A stretch of DNA of 64,000 nucleotides from Candidatus Bathyarchaeia archaeon (GCA_050010515.1 JBEKKX010000022.1:1-64000), one strand, 5' to 3'. Numbered from the stretch's first letter, positions 2,472 through 20,607 are shown. Numbers and translations: made by a program. The notes: generated by a model not told the origin, from the letters alone.

Positions 2472-3620
2472 TCATGCCTTAATCCTCCGATACAGATGCA
2501 CTCCTCCGATTTCGTCGTATTTGGTGTAGCCTTGACTAGCCAGTTTTTCAGCTTCTTCCACTGTTGAAGCTCTAGCTGTCTCCCAGTCTAAATCATTGAA
2601 AACTACCGTGTTGGTGTACTTGTCGGTGGAGTTGCTGCTTTTATGGCCTAGTTTCTGTTGAACTTCTTTCTGGGGCCTAAGCTGCTTGATTAAGCGGTGT
2701 GCAAAGCCATAGCGGAAAGTGTGAATGTGGATTAGACTAAGCCGGTCAGCTTCGCCTGGGTTCTCTCTACAAATTTTGAGACGTAAATTCTTGAATTGGT
2801 CAGTGTAGGTCTTCGGGTGTGGGCAGAAAATATACGGCTGATATTTACGGTTTAAGGATTGGATTCTTGCTATTGTGGCTTCAGGTACTTTGATTGTTCG
2901 GGGTCTGCTACCTTTTTCAGGTTGATTGATGCTGATTGTGCAGTTAGCGGTGTTAAGGTCGGACCATTTGATATGGCAAACTTCCCCGCGTCTTGCTCCA
3001 GTGTCATGTGTCGCTAAAAGGTAAGTTCCTAATCGGTGTCCTGCGGCGTTAACATATAGTTTTAATTCGTCAGGTGTTGCTATGAAGGCTTCTTTCGGTT
3101 GATAGTTGGTTTTGATTGGCTCCCAGAAAATCTTTAGCGTTTTGCAGTAGCTTTTGTAGCTGCAAACTGCTATGTATTTTTTGCTTGGTTTCTCTTTGTC
3201 GTTGTACTCGGGTTCAACTGCTAAAACGGTTTCGACTGATTCAGGATTTTTAAGGTCGGCTCCTTTTCCGATTAATCCGGCAAGCACTGAGCAGCGTACT
3301 GTTATCGTGTTGTCGCCTAATCCTCTCTTTTTCAGCTTCCAAGCGTACTCTAAGAGACTACTTTCTTTTACACCCGCAACAGTCTTGATTTCTGTTGACG
3401 GTTCCAAATTTTTCGCCTTATCCTGCAGGATTGCGCATATTTGGCTATCCTTGACATTAGTATTCTCAACATTTAACACTTGCCCATTACTAAAACGGAA
3501 ACCGCAACTTCTACATAGAAACCTCTGTGCTTTACAGCCGTCACTCAAAACTCTAAGGCCATCTTTAAAGAACTTCTCACTATGACAAGAAGGGCATTTA
3601 ATAGCGATTTGAGACTCCAA
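2472..3620 (-). CDS. tyrosine integrase with N-terminal Zn finger
   Basis: Full catalytic set: TGARRGE (R), EKG (K), HTFR, LGH, DKY; N-terminal CPSC...CRSC. Confidence 0.92.
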   Translation of the reverse strand: MESQIAIKCPSCHSEKFFKDGLRVLSDGCKAQRFLCRSCGFRFSNGQVLNVENTNVKDSQICAILQDKAKNLEPSTEIKTVAGVKESSLLEYAWKLKKRGLGDNTITVRCSVLAGLIGKGADLKNPESVETVLAVEPEYNDKEKPSKKYIAVCSYKSYCKTLKIFWEPIKTNYQPKEAFIATPDELKLYVNAAGHRLGTYLLATHDTGARRGEVCHIKWSDLNTANCTISINQPEKGSRPRTIKVPEATIARIQSLNRKYQPYIFCPHPKTYTDQFKNLRLKICRENPGEADRLSLIHIHTFRYGFAHRLIKQLRPQKEVQQKLGHKSSNSTDKYTNTVVFNDLDWETARASTVEEAEKLASQGYTKYDEIGGVHLYRRIKA

Positions 3621-3622
3621 TT

Positions 3623-3913
3623 TTAGGAGCCTCCCTTAATTTTTCGGGTTTCAAGATGGTTTTTGCCTACAATTTTCATATTACAAGAGGCACACCGGAC
3701 AGCGCCATGCGTCCGAAGTCGTTTGTTACAGTCAACACAGAAATGCTTGCCATTGAGGGAGGCACGATTTGAGAAAGTCACTATAACAATCGGCGGCTGT
3801 TTACTCCGAGCATCAACAGACTTTAGCAAGGCCTCAAGGTTGGAGAGTTTCTTTTTCAAGCTGTCAGGTGTGTAGGATTCGAGAATTTCGTTAACGCTTT
3901 CTGTTGCGGTCAA
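3623..3913 (-). CDS. small Zn-finger protein
   Basis: CVDC...CASC; TTG at 3913 overlaps the helicase stop and follows GAGGAGG. Confidence 0.65.
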   Translation of the reverse strand: MTATESVNEILESYTPDSLKKKLSNLEALLKSVDARSKQPPIVIVTFSNRASLNGKHFCVDCNKRLRTHGAVRCASCNMKIVGKNHLETRKIKGGS

Positions 3914-5925
3914 ACTGAATCCTCCTCTGGAGCGCCTATATAGCTGTAACCCGGACATCTTAACGGAATTTCAGATAGCTTGTTTAAATCTCCCCAGTTA
4001 GGCGCCGTGCAACTTGGCTTATCGAAGTTAACACATTCAACAGAACAATAACGCTTAGGAGTTGGCGGTGTTTCTAGTGGTGTTGTTTTCCAGATACGCA
4101 TTTCTCGCCTTGACCCTTTTGGTACTACCTCAAAATTCCAACCACTTGCAATAATCGCGTTTTTAGAGTTGTTAAGTTGATGAGTAAAATAACATGCAGC
4201 AGTAGGCCAACGTTTGCTTTTTACATTCATATTAAGCTGGGTGGCCGTGGAAGTAACCTGATTAAAAACATAGTCAGGAGTGTTAACCCCAGGGTTATCT
4301 TCAGTAGCATTAGTAAGAGCCAAGTTTTCTTTACAATACGCTAGAAAGGCGTCAGCTACTACGTTATTCTCAATGTCTGCCGTGTTTTGACTTTTCAAGT
4401 TCTCTTCCATAGCCTCAATAAAATCCTCTTCTTTTTCACCGAGAGCAACAGCCAAGATACAACCCCATTCTGTAAAATCTGATAGCCGAAAAAGTTTTGA
4501 AGGCTTAACCGTATCTTTAAGATTCAATGCTTTAACAATGACATCAAGAAAACCGCTCAAAATTTCAGGTAAAACTTTGTTAAATTCTGTTTCAAGTTCT
4601 TGATCTGTGCGACGCTCAACGTTTGGCTCAGTTGGATGCATGATTGTCCTATTCAGTAAGTCGCCTTTAGTTACTGACAAATTTAAGCCATTAAGCATGA
4701 TACACCGCTTAAACGAACGAATAAAAGAATCATCATCAGTATACAATGCGCGACTCTCTTGACCCGCTCCAGTTACAGCTTTGCATAACATCTCACTAAA
4801 CCATCGAGGCAAATATTCCAAGTTGTCAAAAATCGGTATGTAATGATGATCTAGCACTTGGAGAGCTGCGTTTTCATCTCTCGGAATCCCAAGCAAAGGC
4901 GCTGAAGAAGGGTCGAATACTGTTCGGATATACCTCTGTGCTGTACTCTTATGTGAGCCGGGGCAGCCATGCATCTCGTTAACTGGATGCGAAATATCAG
5001 GGATAAAGTAAGATGCAGATTGCACCAATAATAAAAGCTGTCTATGAGCGGTCAGCACAGCGTCTTTACATGCACCAATATTAACAAAGGGTAAAAGTTT
5101 TCTTGGATCGCCATGTTGCACTGCCTCAACTAACGGTCTTTGATGATCGTAACGTATAAATAAAATAGGCACATTTACCTCAAGACACCAACCGTTTTTA
5201 GTAATGTGATAAGCCCTATGTCGTGAATCAGCCATGTCTATCCATATTGACCCGTCGCCGCTGGGGTCGAGAGCTACACGGTTAGACATTTTATAATATT
5301 TGCCGTGTGCAGCGGTATACTTCAATAGTTGAATAACTTGAGTCGAGGATTCTCTGTTTAAAATTGTTTTCTCTGCTTCATATAAAAGATGTGATAGATA
5401 TGTTCTAAATTTTTCCTCTTTTAATCTTACTATTTCCTTTGACGCACTTACGCACTTGACGGTATTCCCGCAATCTTTTATGCCTCCTTCTGGATTACAA
5501 TCTCCCTCTTTTACCTCATTAATTTTTTTCAGCGGTGGTGTAGAAGTTTCAGAAACAGCGTCAACTGCGTCAACTGCGTCAAGGTCAAGAGGCACACATG
5601 CAAACTCTATTTTGTGTTGGTCATGGAATAATTCGATATTGCTTTCACAAATTAACTTATAAAGTCTTTCAGCTTGAGAGCCCTTTTTTTCTTTTTCCTC
5701 TTCTGATTCACCGTTTTGTTTTGCTTGTTCTTTTGCAGCTTCTTTTAGTTGTTTTGCTGTTGGTTCTGTTTCTTCTTTGTCTAATATTGGTTGTTTTAAT
5801 GGGTCGTTTCGTGCGTGTGCTTTTTCGCATGTGTAAATTTGTTGTCCGTTTTCGGCTATGTAGCTGGGTACTACTAGGCCTCCGCATGTTCGGCAAACTA
5901 GATTAAATTTTATAGCGTCGGTCAT
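3910..5925 (-). CDS. putative replicative P-loop ATPase/helicase (SF3-like) with N-terminal Zn finger
   Basis: Walker A GCPGSHKST, Walker B IPIFDN, LCKAVTG..RALYTD and DLLNR motifs typical of mobile-element replication ATPases. Confidence 0.75.
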   Translation of the reverse strand: MTDAIKFNLVCRTCGGLVVPSYIAENGQQIYTCEKAHARNDPLKQPILDKEETEPTAKQLKEAAKEQAKQNGESEEEKEKKGSQAERLYKLICESNIELFHDQHKIEFACVPLDLDAVDAVDAVSETSTPPLKKINEVKEGDCNPEGGIKDCGNTVKCVSASKEIVRLKEEKFRTYLSHLLYEAEKTILNRESSTQVIQLLKYTAAHGKYYKMSNRVALDPSGDGSIWIDMADSRHRAYHITKNGWCLEVNVPILFIRYDHQRPLVEAVQHGDPRKLLPFVNIGACKDAVLTAHRQLLLLVQSASYFIPDISHPVNEMHGCPGSHKSTAQRYIRTVFDPSSAPLLGIPRDENAALQVLDHHYIPIFDNLEYLPRWFSEMLCKAVTGAGQESRALYTDDDSFIRSFKRCIMLNGLNLSVTKGDLLNRTIMHPTEPNVERRTDQELETEFNKVLPEILSGFLDVIVKALNLKDTVKPSKLFRLSDFTEWGCILAVALGEKEEDFIEAMEENLKSQNTADIENNVVADAFLAYCKENLALTNATEDNPGVNTPDYVFNQVTSTATQLNMNVKSKRWPTAACYFTHQLNNSKNAIIASGWNFEVVPKGSRREMRIWKTTPLETPPTPKRYCSVECVNFDKPSCTAPNWGDLNKLSEIPLRCPGYSYIGAPEEDSV
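5439..5582. repeat. inverted iteron-like repeats around an A/T tract; candidate origin
   Basis: TTGACGC-like x3 (5439, 5448, 5456) facing GCGTCAA x3 (5558, 5567, 5576). Confidence 0.55.
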
Positions 5926-6584: not shown

Positions 6585-6770
6585 TTATGGTCTCTCCCTT
6601 TCTCCAATCGGCAAAAACTGCTTACACGCTTTCCATGATGCGTGTGTTGAGTAGCCTAAACGACAATGACTAGTCGTGTACTGTGTGAAGAAAGTGCAAT
6701 TATGGCAAAACTGAGGTTTTGGCGCTTTAGGCTGCAAAAAACTTAAAAGGCTTCGATTGCTATCAATCAA
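6585..6770 (-). CDS. small Cys-rich protein
   Basis: CHNC...C...C; overlaps the upstream stop. Confidence 0.55.
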   Translation of the reverse strand: MIDSNRSLLSFLQPKAPKPQFCHNCTFFTQYTTSHCRLGYSTHASWKACKQFLPIGERERP

Positions 6771-6990
6771 TAACGGTAGTCTCCAGTATCGTGTCAGGTG
6801 CGGGGGATTGCTGGCTAACGTGCTTCTCCTGGCGGGGGGTCACGTTAGTCTTTTTAGTTTTATTGATTCTTGTAGAGTCAAAACGGTGTCCACACCTAGG
6901 ACATTTCACCGGCAGATCGACTCTTGGCTGCCATGTGTTACCACATCGGTCACACATGAGTTTTATAACTTCCTCTTTGATTGTTTGCAT
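6763..6990 (-). CDS. Zn-ribbon protein, first gene of the leftward operon
   Basis: CDRCGNTW...CPRCG pattern common in archaeal viruses and plasmids. Confidence 0.7.
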   Translation of the reverse strand: MQTIKEEVIKLMCDRCGNTWQPRVDLPVKCPRCGHRFDSTRINKTKKTNVTPRQEKHVSQQSPAPDTILETTVID

Positions 6991-7071: not shown

Positions 7072-7227
7072 ATAGTTAACCGCTATTATAGTTAACCGCT
7101 ACAAAATATAGCGCATAACTACTCTTTTTAAACAATTTTAGCGTTTAACTAAACCTAAGCGAGGATATACTAAAACGTAAGAGAGGATATAGTAAAACGT
7201 AAGAAAAGCATCTATTAGCGTCTATTA
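7072..7227. repeat. three paired direct repeats
   Basis: ATAGTTAACCGCTA x2 (7072, 7088); GAGGATATA[C/G]TAAAACGTAAGA x2 (7161, 7183); GC[A/G]TCTATTA x2 (7208, 7218). Confidence 0.8.
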
Positions 7228-7479: not shown

Positions 7480-7565
7480 GGGCAATCCAGAAGGCTTAGT
7501 ACCCGAGTGAAAAAGTCTATTCAGCTGAGCAGACTTTCTGCGACAGTTGTAAGGGGCTTAGTTAC
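7480..7565 (+). repeat. long inverted repeat, left copy (86 bp)
   Basis: Reverse complement of 11752-11834 except for an extra GTC at 7515-7517. Confidence 0.95.
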
Positions 7566-7632
7566 TCTTTCTCATGATGAACATCGGTTATCAAGTTAAT
7601 CGTATGATACAATAGGAGAGAACCCTTTTCTC

Positions 7633-7642
7633 TTTTTCTATT
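7633..7642 (+). promoter_or_regulatory. element motif TTTTTCTATT (first of 8 exact copies)
   Basis: Also at 7911, 8766, 9569, 10877, 11887, 14934 (+) and 14787-14796 (-), each just upstream of a start codon. Confidence 0.7.
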
Positions 7643-7655
7643 GAGGTCTTTAGAC

Positions 7656-7886
7656 TTGGTTAAGAAGAAAAACGATGTAAAGAGCGCGTTTTTAGTTTTG
7701 GTGTCCATGATCTTATTTGTTTTAGGTACAACACTTCTTTATGGTGCGCTGACACTTCATTCGATTAGTCTGATGGGCTATACACTTGCCTTTTCCACTG
7801 TGCCTCTATATCATATGTTGACGTTCGACCTTGGTGCAATCTTTTTCTTTTCTGGATTAATCACTCTAATTTATGCGTTTACTTAG
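7656..7886 (+). CDS. small two-TM membrane protein
   Basis: Two hydrophobic segments; TTG 7656 follows GAGG. Confidence 0.65.
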   Translation: MVKKKNDVKSAFLVLVSMILFVLGTTLLYGALTLHSISLMGYTLAFSTVPLYHMLTFDLGAIFFFSGLITLIYAFT

Positions 7887-7933
7887 CCACCGAAAACACC
7901 GCTAAACCTTTTTTTCTATTAGAGGTTTCACCA

Positions 7934-8419
7934 TTGAGTTATCGTGGTAATCAAAAGGGTAATTATGGCAATCAAAAAAGGGGTCATGTAGGGTTTTTGG
8001 GTAGAAAAAAGAAGCCGAAACAACCGAAAGAAGAGGACGTTGTTTATTTCAGAAACGCGGATCCTCCAGAGCAAAAGATACAACCTGAAACTGTGGCATG
8101 GCAGAACAGACCGTTAGATCAAGGCGTAAGTCTTTTTCTTGTTAGACCAACGACTTTCACGGTTCCAGGTGCAAAAACGGTTTTGCCTTCAGACCTGACA
8201 CTGCAAGAAAAGAACGCTTATGAAATTGCGCTTTTATCCGAAAGTCAAAAACTGGGTCTAGAAGCTGTATCAGGTGACAGCTCAGTAAGAAAATATCGAA
8301 TCCTCAAAACAGTCGACCAACTGCCAACAGATAAACCCTTGAGTTTTAGTGATTATCAGTTTATCGGAAACATCAAAAATAGCTTACGGAGTCACGGCTA
8401 TACAGTTTTGCCTCAATAA
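7934..8419 (+). CDS. hypothetical protein with basic MSYRG N-terminus
   Basis: ORF with SD; N-terminus shared with the 8790 protein. Confidence 0.7.
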   Translation: MSYRGNQKGNYGNQKRGHVGFLGRKKKPKQPKEEDVVYFRNADPPEQKIQPETVAWQNRPLDQGVSLFLVRPTTFTVPGAKTVLPSDLTLQEKNAYEIALLSESQKLGLEAVSGDSSVRKYRILKTVDQLPTDKPLSFSDYQFIGNIKNSLRSHGYTVLPQ

Positions 8420-8500
8420 CTCTAAGTCAAGAGAATTCTCTACACTTTCTGAAGATATACTTCGTATTCTACTCCCATTTAGTTTTCTTTTGATGATTCA

Positions 8501-8761
8501 ATGGGTAGCAAGTCAAAAGGAATAGGCATTTTATTCTTACTCCTTAGCGTCTGTTCGTTCTTAGTCAATTTTCACGTTTGGACGCCTTTTCTAATCGGAA
8601 AAATAACGTTTCTTTGGGATCCACTCAGTTATTTTAGCGCACGAATAGTTGGTAAAATCGTATTATTTGGGTCATCGCTCATTACATATTTGAACTATAT
8701 TTTTTCGTTGTTTTGGTCAGCATTTCTTTTCTTTATTGGTTTGATCTTGATTTCTCATTAA
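8501..8761 (+). CDS. small membrane protein
   Basis: Hydrophobic, 2-3 TM segments. Confidence 0.65.
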   Translation: MGSKSKGIGILFLLLSVCSFLVNFHVWTPFLIGKITFLWDPLSYFSARIVGKIVLFGSSLITYLNYIFSLFWSAFLFFIGLILISH

Positions 8762-8789
8762 ACCATTTTTCTATTGAGTGATTTGAAAC

Positions 8790-9551
8790 TTGTCATATAG
8801 AGGTAAACCTAAAGGCTCTTACGGTCAACAGAGGCATGGAACAAGCACTTTTAAAAGTTTTGGCAAGGGAAAACCAAACGCTGATACGTTGAAAGCGCTC
8901 AGGTCTTTTGAGCACACTTCAGATCAACATTCTGCTAAAGACCTTATGAAGTTCGCGGAGATAACGCCTACCGTCATTGTGTACTTGCAAGCATGGAGAG
9001 GCATAAGCAACAGTGAAATGAAAAGAATCATGGAGAGCAAAGGCGATAAGGCTAAAGCTGAAAAATTGGCTCTGATTGCACGTCGACGGGGTTCTGCCAA
9101 ACTTATGATTCAGGATAACAGCAAAAAAGGCAAGGTTTCCCGACATCATTTCAAGATTGTTAAAAAGAAAGCTACTAAAGAACCTGAGAAGGCTAAAGAA
9201 ATCGTTAAAGAGGCTGAAAAGGAACTTGCAAAAGCAGAGACTAAAATCATAAAAGAAGAGTCTCATTTACCCTCTGAAAAAGAGATTCTTGACCGAGCAC
9301 AGCAACTTTATCAAAAAGAGAACTTTAAAGGCAAATACGAAGATAGCGCGGTTGAACAACTACCAACAAAAGGCGAACTTAGCGAAGAGGGCTATCTGCA
9401 AGCTGCCAAACTTGATTTAATGACGAAAACAGATACAAAGGCGTCAAGAGATGTCATGGATTACGTCGAAGGCATAAAAAACGAGCTAGAAAAAATCGGT
9501 TTCACGGTTGAACCGCTCGCGGGTTTTGACGTCACAGACCTAAAATATTAA
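8790..9551 (+). CDS. Lys-rich hypothetical protein with MSYRG N-terminus and probable coiled coil
   Basis: 253-aa ORF with a K/E-rich helix. Confidence 0.75.
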   Translation: MSYRGKPKGSYGQQRHGTSTFKSFGKGKPNADTLKALRSFEHTSDQHSAKDLMKFAEITPTVIVYLQAWRGISNSEMKRIMESKGDKAKAEKLALIARRRGSAKLMIQDNSKKGKVSRHHFKIVKKKATKEPEKAKEIVKEAEKELAKAETKIIKEESHLPSEKEILDRAQQLYQKENFKGKYEDSAVEQLPTKGELSEEGYLQAAKLDLMTKTDTKASRDVMDYVEGIKNELEKIGFTVEPLAGFDVTDLKY

Positions 9552-9592
9552 TCCCTTTTTTCTTTTGTTTTTTCTATTAAAGGCGTCTAAAA

Positions 9593-10864
9593 ATGAAACT
9601 GAAGAAACTTAGCGTAATAATCGTTCTTTCGGTCTTAGTGTTATCTTGTTTTTGCTTTTCTCAAATTAACTTAACTCACGCTCAATATGTCAATGATGCG
9701 ATAACAAGTACGGTCACTGGGTTATCTACTCCGTATTGTGTAGCTATAACGCCTAACGGTCAATACGCTTATGTCAGTAATGAGTATCATAACACCGTTT
9801 CAGTTATTAGCACATCCTTAAACTCAATAGTTGCAACTGTTACGGGATTTTCAAACGCTGTCGAAGGGTTAGCCGTCACTCCCGACGGAAACTATGTTTA
9901 TGTTTGCAATTTTGACGCTAACAACGTTTTAGTGATAAGCACTAGCTCCAATACGGTAACAGCCACAATAACGGGGTTAGATCAACCTTACAGCATAGCT
10001 ATTTCAGGTCAATACGCTTACGTTGCTAACGACGGGGATAATACGGTTTCAGTGATAAGCACTAGCTCTAACACGATTGTTGCTACAGTGACGGGTTTAG
10101 GAAACACGCCTAACGGTATCGCCATTAACGGAAACTATGCGTATGTGGCAAACGCAGGGAGTAGCACCGTTTCAGTTATCAGCACATCCTCAAACTCGGT
10201 TGTTGCTACCATATCAGGGTTAGATGATCCTCAAGGAATAGCTATTACTCCCAACGGAAACTATGCCGTTGTATCAAATTTTGAGGGTAACGACTTAACC
10301 GTTATCAGTATAGCTTCTAACTCGATTGTTGCTACAGTGTCAGGGTTAGATAATCCCGATTGGGTAGCTGTAACTCCGAATAGTCAATACGCTATCGCTG
10401 TCAATAGCGCTACTCCGAGCACAGCGTCCGTTATAGATTTAACTTCAGATACCCTTGTTGACACCGTATCGGGATTAAATGGGCCTCAAGGAATAGCCAT
10501 TACTCCAAACGGAAACTACGCTTATGTAACAAACTGGGGAGTAAGTTTTGACGGAACTACCGTTTCAGTAATTAGTATCAGCTATGTTTCAGAGCCGAGC
10601 CCTACGCCTTCGAGCCCTACACCTTCACCTAGTCCTGGTGGTGGTTCAGGGAGTTATCCTACACCTTGGCCCAGTTCAGAGCCGACTATTAGCCCTACTC
10701 CCGTCGTTACGCCTATCGTTACCAATGTTAAAAGTTGGTTTACGAATACTTTGTTATTTGAGGTTATAGGTGTTATCGCATTTTTTGGGCTCTTATCTTT
10801 CGTAGCTTTTTCTGTCACGCATAAGCATCCTGCAAGGCGTCGTCATTCAAAACGTCGTCACTAA
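9593..10864 (+). CDS. YVTN/YncE-type beta-propeller surface protein
   Basis: Signal peptide, about 7 repeats of P.GIAITPNG.YAYV.N...TVSVIST, Pro/Ser/Thr linker, C-terminal TM and basic tail. Confidence 0.9.
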   Translation: MKLKKLSVIIVLSVLVLSCFCFSQINLTHAQYVNDAITSTVTGLSTPYCVAITPNGQYAYVSNEYHNTVSVISTSLNSIVATVTGFSNAVEGLAVTPDGNYVYVCNFDANNVLVISTSSNTVTATITGLDQPYSIAISGQYAYVANDGDNTVSVISTSSNTIVATVTGLGNTPNGIAINGNYAYVANAGSSTVSVISTSSNSVVATISGLDDPQGIAITPNGNYAVVSNFEGNDLTVISIASNSIVATVSGLDNPDWVAVTPNSQYAIAVNSATPSTASVIDLTSDTLVDTVSGLNGPQGIAITPNGNYAYVTNWGVSFDGTTVSVISISYVSEPSPTPSSPTPSPSPGGGSGSYPTPWPSSEPTISPTPVVTPIVTNVKSWFTNTLLFEVIGVIAFFGLLSFVAFSVTHKHPARRRHSKRRH

Positions 10865-10901
10865 CCCTTTTTCTTGTTTTTCTATTAGAGATGTAATTAC
10901 A

Positions 10902-11720
10902 TTGAACGTTCAATTAAAATTTAAAAACAAAAAAGCGATTGTGGCTATTGCATTTCTGCTTTGTTTAAGCGCTGCTTTTCTTAACCTCTCGTTAGTTCAC
11001 GCTACCACTGATTCCACACCAACATCAACAAGCTCTTTCAACGATTGGAACGGTGAAGTTTACTTTTGCCCTATTATCGCAACTAGCTCAGGACCGTTGC
11101 AATCTGTTGGCGTCGAGTTAGGCGCTGTATCGGGAAATGTAGAAACCGCTCTATACAGCACGTTTAGCGGTACTCAAATTAGCGGTTTAATCGGTGAATC
11201 TTCTTCGACTGTTGCTACTTCAGGATGGGATGATTTAGCTATACCTAGTGACTATTCGATTGTTCCTGGACAAACCTATTACTTAAGTGTACAAGTGGAC
11301 AATGTTAACACGGTCATATACGAGACTGGTTCTGTAAACATGTATGAAATCTATAACTATGCTTATGGCAGCTTCCCAACTTCTACGCCTTCAGTCACGG
11401 TTACAAGTACATGCCTTTGTATGAGAATGACTTATGGCAGTACCGTTCAAGCTACGCCTACACCGACACCTTATCAAGCTCCAACACCGACGCCTTACGG
11501 CACTCAACCGACACCTTATCAATATCCAACACCGACTCCAACAACTTACAATTATGGGCCTACTCCAACACCTGCAACCGTTTATGTGCTCGGTTACGGT
11601 TTTAGCGACACTGATCTTCTAATTATTGTTGTGGCTATCGCTATTATCTGTGTTTGCGGTGCTTATGTCGGCTGGTCTATCAATCAAGGCAATAAACACA
11701 AAGGCAGAAAACACCATTAA
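10902..11720 (+). CDS. membrane-anchored surface protein
   Basis: Signal peptide, beta-rich domain, PTPTPY linker, C-terminal TM and basic tail. Confidence 0.8.
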   Translation: MNVQLKFKNKKAIVAIAFLLCLSAAFLNLSLVHATTDSTPTSTSSFNDWNGEVYFCPIIATSSGPLQSVGVELGAVSGNVETALYSTFSGTQISGLIGESSSTVATSGWDDLAIPSDYSIVPGQTYYLSVQVDNVNTVIYETGSVNMYEIYNYAYGSFPTSTPSVTVTSTCLCMRMTYGSTVQATPTPTPYQAPTPTPYGTQPTPYQYPTPTPTTYNYGPTPTPATVYVLGYGFSDTDLLIIVVAIAIICVCGAYVGWSINQGNKHKGRKHH

Positions 11721-11751
11721 AGAATAGCCCTTTTTCCCTTTTTTAAAAAAT

Positions 11752-11834
11752 GTAACTAAGCCCCTTACAACTGTCGCAGAAAGTCTGCTCAGCTGAATAT
11801 TTTTCACTCGGGTACTAAGCCTTCTGGATTGCCC
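11752..11834 (-). repeat. long inverted repeat, right copy (83 bp)
   Basis: Reverse complement of 7480-7565. Confidence 0.95.
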
Positions 11835-11910
11835 ACATTGGTGTATCTATTTTCCCGGACGCATGTATTATTTAGGACATTTCCCTTTTTTCTATTGTTA
11901 GGTGTTACGA

Positions 11911-13641
11911 TTGAAACTCAAGAAACTCTTAGTTATCTCTCTAATTACGCTACTCTGTCTCTCAGTTTTAGTTAGTCTTTCAACGATTCCAATGGCTCAC
12001 GCTCAGAGCTATAATATTCAATCTATTCAAGGCCCTATCACTGGAGAGGCTGATAGCGGAACAACCGTAACGTTCACGCTTAACTCTGCACCTATTAGCG
12101 GTGACCTTTTGATTGCATGTATTGGAGGTACGGGTTCTGCAGGTGAAAGTATATCGAGTATCACGGAAACGGGAGTTACATGGACGCCTCAAGAAACTAA
12201 TACTGCTAATACGGGTTTTGTGACAGCTATTTGGGCTGGAGTAGTAGGTTCTGGAGCTGTAAAAGGAGGCACCGTTACTTTTAGTCAAACATTAAACGGT
12301 GGTACTTTCGCGTATGTTGACGAGTATTCAGGGCTTTTGACAACTGGGTTTTTAGACAAAATTAATCTTGCGTCAGGTACAAGTACAACGGCTGCCACTG
12401 GAACAACAGCCACAACAAGCGATGCTAACGAGCTAGCTATTGGTGTCATATTTGGTGGCGAGGTCTTTAGCTCTCAAACTAACGGATTCACGCCTTACGG
12501 CAATACGGTGTATGACTATGACGCTATGGTTTATTTGTCACTGATTGTTAGTCAAACGGGAGCTCAAAGCTGTAGCATGACTCAAGCAAACGGCTATACC
12601 TTTCAAGGTTGTATTGCCACTTTTATCGCTGCTGCTGTAGTTACTACCGCTCAAATTATTTTCACTTCTAACCCGACTGGGAGCGGATTCATAACTGTTA
12701 ACGGAACGGCAGAGACAACGCCTTACACAATCGCCTCTGCTAACATAGGTGACACTTACGACATTTCAGCGAATACTCCAGCAAACACAGTGACGAATGA
12801 AACCCAATATGTTTTTACTCAATGGGCTTCGACTTCGATAGGTACTAAAACAACCGCGAGTTATGCTTATGTTGTGCCTGCAGTTGGAGAGACTGTTACA
12901 GCGTCTTTTACTGAGCAATACGCTATAGCTCCGTCCTCTGATTCTGATTCTTCTCTTACGCCTTCGACTGTGACCTGGGTTAACTCTGGAGGCAATCAGC
13001 TTTTCAGTTACACGGCTAACACTGGGTATGCTATAGCAACCGTTATGATTGACGGTGTACCGTTTTCGATAACTGGGAGTTATCAGTTTTCCGATGTCGT
13101 AACCTATCACACTATTTTAGTCACTTCGATAAGTACAGCAACACCGACAGCGCCGCCTAGTGGATCAACAGGGGGAGGTACTTATCCGAATCCTCCGACT
13201 GGAACTTTAACCGTGAGTAATGTAGCTCTCGGATATTTCAGCGTGAATCAAACAGGGTCAGCTAGTCTAACGCTAACTTTTACTGATAACTCTTGGACGG
13301 TTGAAAGCGTAACTTTCGGAACTCCGTTTAGCACTTGGGTTTCTGCCAATGTGCCGTCGGGTCAATTTACGGCTGGAGTGTTGCATGTACCTATAAGCTA
13401 TGCAGTTCCTTCTTACATGACTACTGGAATATTCACTGGAACGGTCACGGTAGTTGTGCAGGATGCTTGTGGAACAACCTATACGGGTACTTCTAAAATC
13501 ACGATTACCATTTTGCCGACTCCCGTAACTAACATCATGGGCTATATACACGCTCACCTTTTGCTTGTTTGTGTAGCTGCCATTATCTTTGTCTTAGCTA
13601 TTTGTGGCTTAATTGCTACGTTCTCAAGGCGCCGCCATTAA
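11911..13641 (+). CDS. large Ser/Thr-rich adhesin-like surface protein
   Basis: MKLKK signal peptide like the 9593 protein (TTG 11911 preferred over 11902), beta-rich domains, C-terminal TM and RRRH. Confidence 0.8.
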   Translation: MKLKKLLVISLITLLCLSVLVSLSTIPMAHAQSYNIQSIQGPITGEADSGTTVTFTLNSAPISGDLLIACIGGTGSAGESISSITETGVTWTPQETNTANTGFVTAIWAGVVGSGAVKGGTVTFSQTLNGGTFAYVDEYSGLLTTGFLDKINLASGTSTTAATGTTATTSDANELAIGVIFGGEVFSSQTNGFTPYGNTVYDYDAMVYLSLIVSQTGAQSCSMTQANGYTFQGCIATFIAAAVVTTAQIIFTSNPTGSGFITVNGTAETTPYTIASANIGDTYDISANTPANTVTNETQYVFTQWASTSIGTKTTASYAYVVPAVGETVTASFTEQYAIAPSSDSDSSLTPSTVTWVNSGGNQLFSYTANTGYAIATVMIDGVPFSITGSYQFSDVVTYHTILVTSISTATPTAPPSGSTGGGTYPNPPTGTLTVSNVALGYFSVNQTGSASLTLTFTDNSWTVESVTFGTPFSTWVSANVPSGQFTAGVLHVPISYAVPSYMTTGIFTGTVTVVVQDACGTTYTGTSKITITILPTPVTNIMGYIHAHLLLVCVAAIIFVLAICGLIATFSRRRH

Positions 13642-14951: not shown

Positions 14952-16043
14952 ATGTCAGCAATAGAGAAAGAACTAGGTGAAGAGGTTGCTAAGTTTCTAA
15001 GGGCTATCTCTCCGTCTAACCCTGAAGCACCGGATAAGCTGGGTCCTTCCGCTCAAACATATTATCCTGGGCTAGGTTGGTTTCAGCGTTACCTTGTTGA
15101 ACAATCCCTTTCTAAAGAATCTGCTTTCCCTAGAATCAAGTCAATCCATCTTTTCCTAGTTGCTGTTAAGGCGGATGCAAAAATTGAGAACTCACTCAAG
15201 CGTTGTTTTCCTGATCGAGAGCTGCTTAAGACTTTTGCAACTAGCCTTCTTAAAGAGAACAAGGCGCCTAAAACTGTTAGGTCTTATGTCGGCTCAGTTC
15301 AATCTCTTGCTAAATACTTCGACATTCCAATTACTACAGCCTATAGCGATCTGCCTCCGGCTATTGCAGAGAACGAAAAATATCCCTGGAGTATTGAACA
15401 AGTCGGAGACTTCATTAAGTCTTTTGATTCACCGATGTATAGATGCCTTGGTGTTTGGTTCATTCAAACGGGTCTAAGCAATTACGATCTGTTGCACATG
15501 CCTTATAGCAAAATAAAAGAGCAGTACGAGAATAGCATCAACCCGTTCTGTCTCAATCTTGTGAGGCATAAAACGCGTAAGTTTGAAATCAAGTTTAGGG
15601 CCTTCATCGGTACTCTTGGCATTCGGTACTTTCGCACGTACTATGAGAGTTTGGATCATGCACTCTCGGATGATGATTTGATTTTTAATGTTAGCTCTGT
15701 AGCTGTTGAAAAGTATTTTGAGCGAAGGGCTAAAGAGTTTATATCTAAAGACAAACCGAAAGAGCGCAAGAAGAAAAGCAACTTAACCGTTAACCCCGTT
15801 GCAACCGTAGACGACCCTATTACCGCCACGTTGAAAAAGAAACGGAATCCAATGTGTCCTAGTTCTCTGCGAACTGGGTTTAGAACTTTCTTGAGTGACG
15901 GCAAGGTTACTAACTCAATCATTGAGTACCTCATGGGCCACAACCTAACAAGTGATCTGGAAAAGACATACACCAACAAGTCAGATGATTCATGGAGAAA
16001 GACTTGGCAAGAGTTTGAACCTCTATTAACCTTTCAGGTCTAA
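14952..16043 (+). CDS. second tyrosine recombinase-family protein with atypical active site
   Basis: APKTVRSY, QTGLS, RHKT, SSLRTGF, EYLMGH, KTY. Confidence 0.85.
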   Translation: MSAIEKELGEEVAKFLRAISPSNPEAPDKLGPSAQTYYPGLGWFQRYLVEQSLSKESAFPRIKSIHLFLVAVKADAKIENSLKRCFPDRELLKTFATSLLKENKAPKTVRSYVGSVQSLAKYFDIPITTAYSDLPPAIAENEKYPWSIEQVGDFIKSFDSPMYRCLGVWFIQTGLSNYDLLHMPYSKIKEQYENSINPFCLNLVRHKTRKFEIKFRAFIGTLGIRYFRTYYESLDHALSDDDLIFNVSSVAVEKYFERRAKEFISKDKPKERKKKSNLTVNPVATVDDPITATLKKKRNPMCPSSLRTGFRTFLSDGKVTNSIIEYLMGHNLTSDLEKTYTNKSDDSWRKTWQEFEPLLTFQV

Positions 16044-18976: not shown

Positions 18977-19933
18977 TTACCATCGCTCTTTTGCTGTTTT
19001 AAGAAGCTCTTGCAGGGTACCTTCTTGCTCAATGAAATCCAATAAGACCTCAACCGCGACAGTGAGACATTCGTTAAGTCTTTTCTGCTTAAACTCTTGT
19101 GAAGGGTCAACCGCTAAGTTATAGACAGCATGTTTAAAATCATCGGGTAAATCGGCTTTGGCGTCACTGATTAGCTTTTCAAGTGTTTGCTGCTCTTCGT
19201 TATTTTCAGCGATTAAAGCGTCAATCTTCTCTTCAGAGGTAGGCTCTTTGGTTTGCCGTTCCCAGTTGGGAACGGGATTATCGTTAAGTAACTCAGGTTC
19301 AACCGGTAAAACCGTTGACGTCAACGGTTCTTTTTCAGTGAAAGTATTCACGTGAATACTTTGTAGTTCTTTAACTTCCGTTGATTCTGCAGGTTGTTGT
19401 GTGGCTTTGAGAGCTCTTGCCTTGCCGCTTGCGATTCCAAGTTGAGAATGTTCTTGGTCTTTCAGTGGTTTCGGATAATAGCGGTCAACGGTTGTGTGAC
19501 TTAACCCGATTTTGGCCACAATCTCTTTAACGCTTAAGTGTCCTTCAGTGGCAAGAAATACTATGTTTTTCTTGAGTTCTTCAGAGGTTCCTTTTCTCCG
19601 ATTGAAGTTAATTGCTGTGCTGTAAAGTACCCTATCGACTTCAGTAATGCAATTTTTCAGAATAATCTTAGTGTATTGAGCGTTAGGGCATTCGGTTAAT
19701 CGATGAAAACCGTCAACAAGCGTCACGCCGTCAGCCATATAGTAGATTGGAGTGATAGGGCCTAGGTTCTGTATGCTTTCTGCAAGGCTGTAACCTTCTT
19801 CATCATCGACAGCAACGATAGTGAAAACTTTGTCGCCGTTAACAGTTTTTTCTTGGATTGTTTTAAACTGAGAATGGTTCTCAGGGGTACTAATTTTTTC
19901 ATTGCTTTCGCTAATAGATTTTTCACTGATCAA
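18977..19933 (-). CDS. ParB/Srx N-terminal domain plus HTH protein
   Basis: LAESIQNLGPITPI, LVDGFHRL, NFNRR and an HTH. Confidence 0.8.
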   Translation of the reverse strand: MISEKSISESNEKISTPENHSQFKTIQEKTVNGDKVFTIVAVDDEEGYSLAESIQNLGPITPIYYMADGVTLVDGFHRLTECPNAQYTKIILKNCITEVDRVLYSTAINFNRRKGTSEELKKNIVFLATEGHLSVKEIVAKIGLSHTTVDRYYPKPLKDQEHSQLGIASGKARALKATQQPAESTEVKELQSIHVNTFTEKEPLTSTVLPVEPELLNDNPVPNWERQTKEPTSEEKIDALIAENNEEQQTLEKLISDAKADLPDDFKHAVYNLAVDPSQEFKQKRLNECLTVAVEVLLDFIEQEGTLQELLKTAKERW

Positions 19934-20035: not shown

Positions 20036-20049
20036 TTATTAGTCTCGAA
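20036..20049 (+). repeat. right att core TTATTAGTCTCGAA
   Basis: Identical to 2424-2437. Confidence 0.85.
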
Positions 20050-20208
20050 AAACATCTTTAGCTTACCCGAAGGTTAGGGTAGAAGCCTTTGTTGCGTCAA
20101 ATCAAGCATGCGCTTGGTTGGGTGTTGCAATGGCTTTGATGGTTTGTAGTTCACCTTAAACGAGGGTTGAATAAAGTACCCGTGTCAAATTGATGGAGGA
20201 TTGTTTAA

Positions 20209-20607
20209 GTGGCGGGAAGTCAAAAAACGATACTTGTTGTTGATGATGACAAATCGATACTTCGAACGTTCACGCGCATTCTTCAAAAAAGCGGCTATGA
20301 AATTGATGTTGCAGAAACCGGAAAAGAAGCTATGGAGAAAGCAGAAAATCACCATTTCGATTTAGCATTAGTTGATATCAGGCTTCCAGATATGGATGGC
20401 ACAGATTTACTTGCTAAACTCAAAAAGCAATTACAGTATACCGTGAAAATAATGATTACTGGCTTTCCATCCCTAGAAACAGGCGTTAAAGCGCTTGATG
20501 AAGGCGCAGATGCTTACTTGGTTAAACCTGTGAAACCTCAGGAACTGCTGATGCTTCTGGAAGAGAAACTGAAAAACCGGGAAGAGCCACCTGAAGCAAG
20601 CACTTAA
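20209..20607 (+). CDS. single-domain response regulator
   Basis: LVVDDD, DIRLPDMDG, ITG, KP. Confidence 0.92.
   Translation: MAGSQKTILVVDDDKSILRTFTRILQKSGYEIDVAETGKEAMEKAENHHFDLALVDIRLPDMDGTDLLAKLKKQLQYTVKIMITGFPSLETGVKALDEGADAYLVKPVKPQELLMLLEEKLKNREEPPEAST

Follow-up and report, generated by a model that had tools for sequence, protein, structure and literature searches.

Can a 4.2-kb block of membrane- and surface-protein genes, bracketed by a long inverted repeat, turn around within the archaeal mobile element that carries it? This question was raised by positions 7480-11834 of a 64,000-nucleotide stretch from Candidatus Bathyarchaeia archaeon (GCA_050010515.1, JBEKKX010000022.1:1-64000), referred to below as the window. 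The window is contig C22 of a near-complete genome (2.38 Mb, 66 contigs) obtained from peat/wetland metagenomes. The repeat is real and unusual, and it lies inside a newly delimited Bathyarchaeal integrated element. Its arms are tentatively read, with somewhat less than an even chance of being right, as a recombination-active pair that lets the enclosed module flip, regulated or not. This reading was ranked first because the arms are near-identical and sharply bounded, because they lie in non-coding spacers at the ends of the module, because the element encodes two recombinases and because a sister element has an inverted pair of its own. That flipping occurs, which enzyme would be responsible and how expression would be affected are points that we infer.

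Inverted repeat around the surface-protein module

The two arms (Table 1) were described in a first-pass annotation of the window as reverse complements except for a 3-nt indel, enclosing six co-oriented genes. Alignment and a map of open reading frames (ORFs) bore this out. The repeat consists of two exact stretches, 7480-7514/11800-11834 (35 nt, 100%) and 7518-7565/11752-11799 (48 nt), and the sole difference between the arms is the triplet GTC at 7515-7517, which is present in the left copy only. The near-palindrome that had been noted in the left arm and the duplication of GGCTTAGT within each arm were both found as described; in the right arm the GTC of the near-palindrome's left half is missing through the indel. 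GGCTTAGT is located at 7493 and 7555 (plus strand) and at 11755 and 11814 (minus strand). It has nine matches in the window (2.0 expected), four of them within the two arms. At each of the four arm borders the similarity breaks off abruptly (outer flanks z -1.3, inner flanks z 0.3 versus shuffles).

The repeat is present in exactly two copies in its own 2.38-Mb genome, and the earlier concern that it might be one of many copies of the miniature inverted-repeat transposable element (MITE) type was dropped. A megablast comparison of the whole genome gave three same-contig inverted pairs of at least 28 nt and at least 90% identity. A sensitive windowed scan gave 18 inverted pairs with a spacing of 200-10,000 nt, several of which are opposed paralogous genes or an insertion sequence. 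Arm-like sequence was sought in 100 other genomes of the host family, yielding no real match and three short ones at chance level; exact 48- and 40-mers of the arm are absent from the viral and species-genome collections. Each arm can be read through in an open frame; the putative peptide has no homolog in the related loci or in the genome.

Logan contigs (k=31) end at 7509 in sequencing runs X4 and X8 and, in X4, also at 7536, 11781 and 11805. The contigs thus end k-1 nucleotides into each arm, as a true repeat demands, and the repeat is therefore not an artefact of assembly. A separate metagenome contig of 11.3 kb (L006) covers both arms with one mismatch in 11,317 nt against the window.

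Six plus-strand genes (c81, c161, c86, c253, c423 and c272) are located between the arms; no ORF crosses an arm and the opposite strand holds no credible genes. The surface protein c423 combines a signal-like N-terminus, a Pro/Thr linker and a C-terminal anchor with a basic tail. The next gene beyond the right arm, s579, has in common with c423 an upstream motif (TTTTTCTATT...AGG) and an MKLKKL-type start, so that the enclosed block is taken to be part of a longer operon-like row and not a foreign cassette. Almost all genes of the row, s579 included, have upstream a T-rich TTTTTCTATT and, after it, a Shine-Dalgarno-like AGG/GAGG. The spacer between c272 and s579 measures 181 nt, compared with 28-81 nt in the other five gaps of the operon. 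In a related genome (G184), c161, c253, c272-like and s579-like genes are found in matching order and strand, with spacers of 28-37 nt and no repeat. Since this operon is tightly spaced without the repeat, the right arm is, as judged by gene order, a derived addition to the operon.

Homologs of c81 are present in genomes G144, G115 and others. The predicted fold of c161 (predicted local distance difference test score 72) gave no PDB match at E<=0.001, and c253 gave no match in the Atlas structure search. The idea that c81 and c86 may be spindle-virus capsid proteins, prompted by part of a survey of Bathyarchaeia viruses (PMC10848311), found no support in Pfam or PHROG, and c86 has three hydrophobic windows, not two.

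Integrated element, recombinases and related loci

The element is a 17.6-kb insert flanked by host genes (MptE-like, GHMP kinase; response regulator, LeuRS). As in other tyrosine-integrase elements, an integrase gene was found near one end, together with direct attachment-site (att) repeats and an empty site in a relative. The 14-bp att core occurs in exactly two perfect copies in the window (Table 1). The empty site is represented by contigs of X8, X11 and X4 that connect about 2416-2437 with 20036-20224; the related-strain contig joining 2416 to 20036 has a depth of 64 in X8. Depth bins of X8 and X11 range from 49 to 248 in the flank and from 3 to 8 in the element. Taken together, the empty-site joints and the low depth of the element identify an integrated mobile element that is present in only part of the population. 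An element-free related strain exceeds the carrier about 10- to 30-fold in X8 and X11. The element is contained in the peat and wetland runs X1-X8. In X4 the depth of the element contigs is 53.3-59.4 and that of the host-flank contig 55.2, with values of 55.7, 57.4 and 58.8 to the left of, inside and to the right of the arms. The element is chromosomal and single-copy. Relatives of one of its proteins were found on contigs titled Candidatus Bathycorpusculum, Bathyarchaeia. The possibility that an arm is a copy of an att site was tried and rejected; the gapped similarity to attL lies at the 1.2% tail of window-wide controls (four comparisons).

int1 is a standard integrase in which the R, HxxR, H and Y motifs are all recognisable. 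The spare tyrosine recombinase claimed in the first-pass annotation (int2) is likewise genuine, though divergent: it weakly matches the PHROG integrase family phrog_1 and belongs to a family with PF00589-positive members. int2 itself has no Pfam match, and a PDB sequence search gave chance-level matches only. Among its database relatives, 23 of the 24 nearest (at least 47% identity) have no Pfam domain on record and the next 56 (P0027-P0082) all have PF00589. An alignment of 15 family members and int1 (A2) was examined. R307, H330 and Y340 are invariant, the Arg-I position is Ser in all 15 family members, Pfam-integrase-positive ones included, and the HxxR histidine (His-II) is replaced by Ser in the int2 subfamily (Ala in one). 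int2 may plausibly be active. The family is multi-copy in many host-family genomes, with matches in 43 of the 331 other genomes and up to six in each. No serine recombinase was found among the ORFs scanned.

Two sets of relatives were compared: 16 loci around homologs of the element's 671-residue putative replication protein and 13 loci with a c161 or c253 homolog. The 16 loci have only the 671-residue protein and int1 in common and contain no inverted pair of at least 28 nt. The closest syntenic relative is contig C31 of genome G144, which carries int1, three small genes (g3623, g5922 and g6244), c81, c161, c253 and int2 at 68-72% identity. It also has an inverted pair of its own (32 nt exact, 37 nt at 95%; locus L062, 8700-8736/10914-10950), one arm upstream of c81 and the other downstream of c253, and the int2 ortholog begins about 490 nt past the right arm. 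This pair and that of the window are not significantly alike (best of four alignments z 2.1), and the regions upstream of the module could not be aligned between the two. Unrelated arms at the same borders fit either concerted evolution of the arms or a repeated origin. As to the retention of both repeat and second recombinase in homologous elements, suggested earlier as a check, G144 has an int2 ortholog and its own, unrelated pair; in genome G186 c161 lies directly upstream of an int2 ortholog and there is no repeat.

A further pair was found in genome G115 (contig C117, locus L114), where perfect 25-nt arms (2876-2900/5007-5031) enclose a different 2.1-kb segment between the c81 and c161 homologs. 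This segment encodes a 430-residue protein of unknown type and two small ORFs on the opposite strand; three sister loci in that genome lack a counterpart to it.

Inversion weighed against other origins of the arms

In the proposed mechanism, an 83-86-nt non-coding unit upstream of the module would have been copied precisely, in inverted orientation, into the c272-s579 spacer at the operon's distal end. If the two arms recombined, the 4.2-kb block would be inverted, and the arms would also be kept alike. The catalyst would be one of the two tyrosine recombinases of the element (int2 being the first candidate) or host homologous recombination. A flip would part the six genes from the upstream region and from s579, which would amount to an on/off change of the element's surface proteins. 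A more specific version was judged distinctly unlikely, namely a programmed flip of a membrane/surface (possibly virion) module in a Bathyarchaeal provirus-like element, performed by an int2-type subfamily that lacks the first Arg and the second His, with arms evolving in concert, for which reason the arms of sister elements would differ in sequence at the two shared borders of the module.

For all 21 public runs considered the data are k=31 contigs; those of the four runs compared break at the arms and cannot show the orientation of the segment, because they are interrupted by the exact repeats of 35 and 48 nt. Several observations weigh against flipping. The window and L006, which stem from two longer-k assemblies, have the same orientation and no flipped copy was seen; among the joints listed (15 of 17) none changes strand. 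Since the six genes are co-oriented and no ORF extends over an arm, there is no alternative gene set of the kind known from Mu G or phiCh1. The nearest arm is 3.1 kb from int2 and 3.9 kb from int1, the single recombinase-core-like palindrome of the repeat is damaged in the right arm, and the arms have no ungapped match to the 14-bp att core at up to three mismatches. Among the 13 related loci, a repeat surrounds the homologous module in one; a second pair (G115:C117) surrounds other genes and 11 loci have none, one of these with a degenerate 50-nt pair (76%). With two or three inverted pairs in about 233 kb, the related loci do not exceed the genome background of about 7.6 per Mb; only the position of the pairs stands out, and this was noticed post hoc. 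In G144:C31 a 62-residue ORF located after a MazE/AbrB-like gene contains the left arm; the right arm adjoins an ORF for an anchored protein without a signal peptide, apparently 5'-truncated. This setting looks more like the footprint of a rearrangement than a tuned site. The anchored ORF resembles s579 in its C-terminal pattern only, with no significant BLASTP match.

Promoter and terminator signals around the arms (Table 1) were read by eye against the archaeal consensus. Archaeal transcription stops at oligo-T. On the plus strand c272 is followed at once by T5 and T6 runs, so that the operon transcript probably ends before the right arm; this speaks against the arms pairing with each other in a long-range RNA helix. 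An archaeal bulge-helix-bulge processing stem of the rRNA type was also considered and rejected. In that motif two bulges of 3 nt, one on each strand, are set 4 bp apart, whereas the arms differ by one 3-nt indel and would form one bulge rather than two.

The strongest competitor is an inert scar: template switching during repair or recombination would have placed a reversed copy of a short stretch upstream of the module at the junction formed at its far end, and the block would flip rarely or never. This account, which we regard as somewhat unlikely, would suit the insertion of the right arm into an otherwise tight operon, the single orientation seen in two assemblies, the unexceptional number of inverted pairs in the related loci and the wide variation of module order and orientation in this mosaic family. 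It would also suit the right arm of G144, a 32-37-nt piece of the small ORF next to the probably truncated gene. A scar leaves unexplained, however, why two related elements each have a pair at the same module borders, for which a chance of about 1e-3 is a rough post hoc estimate. Both arms in the window avoid all coding sequence, and even a scar with exact inverted stretches of 35 and 48 nt is a recombination substrate. A duplicated transcription unit is unlikely. It would be an 83-86-nt unit transcribed inward at both ends, its left copy being the 5' leader of the c81 operon and its right copy a free-standing minus-strand RNA of about 95 nt that could titrate a binder of the leader. The layout invites this view: a TTTAAAA box stands ahead of the left arm, the minus strand has TAAATAATA 36 nt ahead of the right arm (11874-11866) and, immediately past that arm, a run of six T residues (11750-11745); the unit begins with GGG and has sharp ends, and the indel is 3 nt long. 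Yet Rfam gave no match to the arm and, at E<=10, no credible hit in the surroundings of the left one (two tRNAs elsewhere reached the gathering score), and the arm folds no better than shuffles on any strand (z -1.4, -1.0). Genomic 12-mers complementary to the arm are not in excess (28 found, 21 expected), the unit has no homologs in the other genomes searched, and the pair of G144 lacks such a promoter/terminator layout. Flipping of the module was accordingly ranked above the scar and the scar above the duplicated unit; the three remain close.

Other accounts fare far worse, among them those proposed in the first-pass annotation. The inverted ends and sharp borders around a gene block recall a captured, non-autonomous MITE- or transposon-like cassette, but this is very unlikely: the repeat has two genomic copies and no real match in the 100 other family genomes or in the viral and species-genome collections, no transposase is encoded inside the arms and there is no target-site duplication (the flanks end with ...TTGGTTG and begin with ACATTGG...; direct flank comparison z 0.8). 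Motif, signal peptide and gene order moreover connect the enclosed genes with s579, as they do in G184, where the operon has no repeat. An archaeal analogue of the yeast 2-micron plasmid, in which inversion during replication raises the copy number, was suggested by the combination of an inverted repeat and a recombinase and by iteron-like repeats at a distance of some 300-400 nt from the left arm. This proved highly improbable. The element is integrated between att repeats, and its depth in X4 equals that of the host flank and is even across the arms; moreover, the arms cut off 4.2 of 17.6 kb instead of halving a circle around an origin, and a symmetric recombinase target is not intact in both. 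The chance that the second copy does not exist and was created by the assembly is next to negligible, given that contigs of independent runs branch at the arms, a second assembly spans both and the copies differ by the indel.

If the block flips, mobile elements of the Bathyarchaeia, which are abundant, uncultured archaea of peat and sediment, vary their surface proteins by inversion, and a large unannotated recombinase subfamily is tied to that job. A programmed flip would make it an invertible module of several genes in an uncultured lineage of archaea. Should the block not flip, the locus still exemplifies, with clear limits, a new family of integrated elements in Bathyarchaeia for which att sites, an empty site and a replication-protein family are defined.

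Further features and known inversion systems

The remaining features of the element are included in Table 1. No sequence match to the 671-residue protein was found in Pfam, PHROG, NCBIfam or the PDB. In the Atlas structure search it matched helicase parts of Toprim/PrimPol-linked proteins (TM 0.58-0.69), and the predicted structure resembles the helicase domains of phage and plasmid primase-helicases. Relatives are present in 30 of the 331 other family genomes; the viral collection contains no element with the 671-residue protein, the arm or an alignment to int2. G144:C31 encodes an unrelated 679-residue protein at the corresponding position. The iteron-like region consists of a 22-nt unit repeated twice in tandem (7151-7194) and another short unit repeated twice (about 7073-7102, counted by hand), and may be an origin or control region. 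A 75-residue ORF at 6763-6990 (minus strand), pointing away from the surface module, has two CxxC pairs (zinc-ribbon-like), with an AT-rich box about 30 nt upstream of its ATG.

Table 1
Positions of the repeat arms, genes and signals in the window
Feature	Position	Strand	Remarks
attL core, 14-bp direct repeat TTATTAGTCTCGAA	2424-2437	+	
int1, tyrosine integrase with N-terminal zinc ribbon	2472-3620	-	PF00589 E 7.7e-18; XerA-like E 9.6e-16
671-residue putative replication protein	3910-5925	-	Helicase-like (lead only)
Iteron-like direct repeats	7073-7208		Non-coding gap between divergent replication and surface modules
TATA-like TTTAAAA	7450-7456	+	Centred 27 nt before first base of left arm
Left arm	7480-7565	+	86 nt
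26-nt near-palindrome in left arm	7512-7537		17-nt arms, 88% complementary (repeat scan)
TTTTTCTATT-type motifs	7630-7643, 7910-7925, 8763-8776, 9554-9583, 10876-10891, 11884-11897		
c81, small hydrophobic protein	7641-7886	+	Two transmembrane-like windows; start 7656 likelier
c161, soluble, basic MSYRG N-terminus	7934-8419	+	Best-conserved module gene, 5/331 other family genomes
c86, small hydrophobic protein	8501-8761	+	Three transmembrane-like windows
c253, second MSYRG protein	8790-9551	+	13/331 other family genomes
c423, surface protein	9593-10864	+	YVTN beta-propeller repeats, TIGR02276 E 1e-33
c272, surface protein	10902-11720	+	Signal-like N-terminus, Pro/Thr linker, C-terminal anchor with basic tail
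T5...T6A6 tract	11727-11751		Between c272 and right arm; oligo-T terminator-like, both strands
Right arm	11752-11834	-	83 nt, inserted in c272-s579 spacer
s579, third anchored surface protein	11902-13641	+	Just outside right arm
int2, divergent tyrosine recombinase	14952-16043	+	phrog_1 E 8e-6
ParB-like protein	18977-19933	-	phrog_2159 E 1.9e-10
attR core, second 14-bp copy	20036-20049	+	

Genome G144 has a second element in which a homolog of the 62-residue ORF of C31 adjoins another integrase, in opposite orientation. In that locus (L110, G144:C3, 14798-16325, minus strand) a 431-residue ORF with tyrosine-recombinase-like motifs by eye is followed by the homolog; the small protein may be an integrase partner. 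Other inverted pairs were noticed in passing in the genome of the window (G000). One is a non-coding pair (50 nt, 94%; G000:C10:45063-45112/49466-49515) around 4.35 kb that include an M50 peptidase-CBS gene. A 287-residue protein beside it has a similar-looking counterpart on C38 (same length, similar N-terminus by eye), which adjoins further inverted pairs around a 1357-residue PKD/Ig surface protein. A 54-nt pair (G000:C16:53496-53549/55890-55941) surrounds a 336-residue ORF, a transposase by eye, and is probably an insertion sequence with a passenger gene. GGTTCTGTGAAGTCTT was seen by eye in inverted-repeat arms of two genomes (L112, G115:C38, 7796-7845; G000:C4:31606-31630), where this run may serve as a common operator or promoter element.

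DNA inversion switches have been studied extensively in bacteria but hardly in archaea. To our knowledge, the archaeal examples are one virus (phiCh1), the integrase-driven chromosomal flips of Thermococcales and a dozen putative invertons. The haloarchaeal virus phiCh1 is the closest archaeal precedent: its tyrosine recombinase int1 reportedly inverts a segment between repeat clusters that affects the tail-fibre genes ORF34/36. Both cases combine an archaeal mobile element, inverted repeats, a tyrosine recombinase and surface or adhesion proteins. In phiCh1, however, the recombinase is reportedly encoded within the segment and inversion exchanges the C-terminal parts of two genes in opposed orientation, whereas the six genes here all point one way without an ORF across an arm, the recombinases are located 3-4 kb outside and the inversion is a candidate one.

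The Mu G, P1 C and Salmonella H segments have serine invertases (Gin/Cin/Hin) beside the segment, short crossover sites, an enhancer and alternative genes or a promoter. The present locus resembles them in the kilobase-scale block of a mobile element bracketed by inverted repeats at both ends and in the surface structures concerned. It differs in that the recombinases found are not of the serine type, and its six co-oriented ORFs offer no evident alternative genes, gene ends or promoter to be switched. Invertons such as fimS and the Bacteroides promoters are mostly a few hundred base pairs long and promoter-carrying, with arms of 10-30 nt; they share inverted repeats near surface genes with this locus, in which the segment spans 4.2 kb and six genes and the arms 83-86 nt. 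The Flp/FRT system of the yeast 2-micron plasmid likewise joins an inverted repeat to a tyrosine recombinase on a selfish element. The present element, by contrast, is integrated in a single copy, its arms do not divide a circle into halves and an FRT-like symmetric site is not preserved intact in both.

The literature searched contained no account of this family of elements, nor of any invertible module from Bathyarchaeia, and the term 'inverted repeat' does not occur in the main text of the Bathyarchaeia virus survey in the partial form available (PMC10848311). According to a long-read survey, 12 putative invertons were detected in 42 archaeal genomes and the topic is called under-studied (bioRxiv 10.1101/2023.03.11.532203). 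The nearest precedent for a mechanism is provided by the integrase of Thermococcus plasmid pTN3, which is described as inverting DNA between att sites and also between any identical stretches of at least 104 bp (PMC5495485, PMC8371274). That integrase belongs to another family and host and produces large chromosomal inversions, and exact identity in the present arms extends over 48 nt at most; the 83-86-nt near-identical pair in an integrase-bearing element would nevertheless be a comparable substrate.

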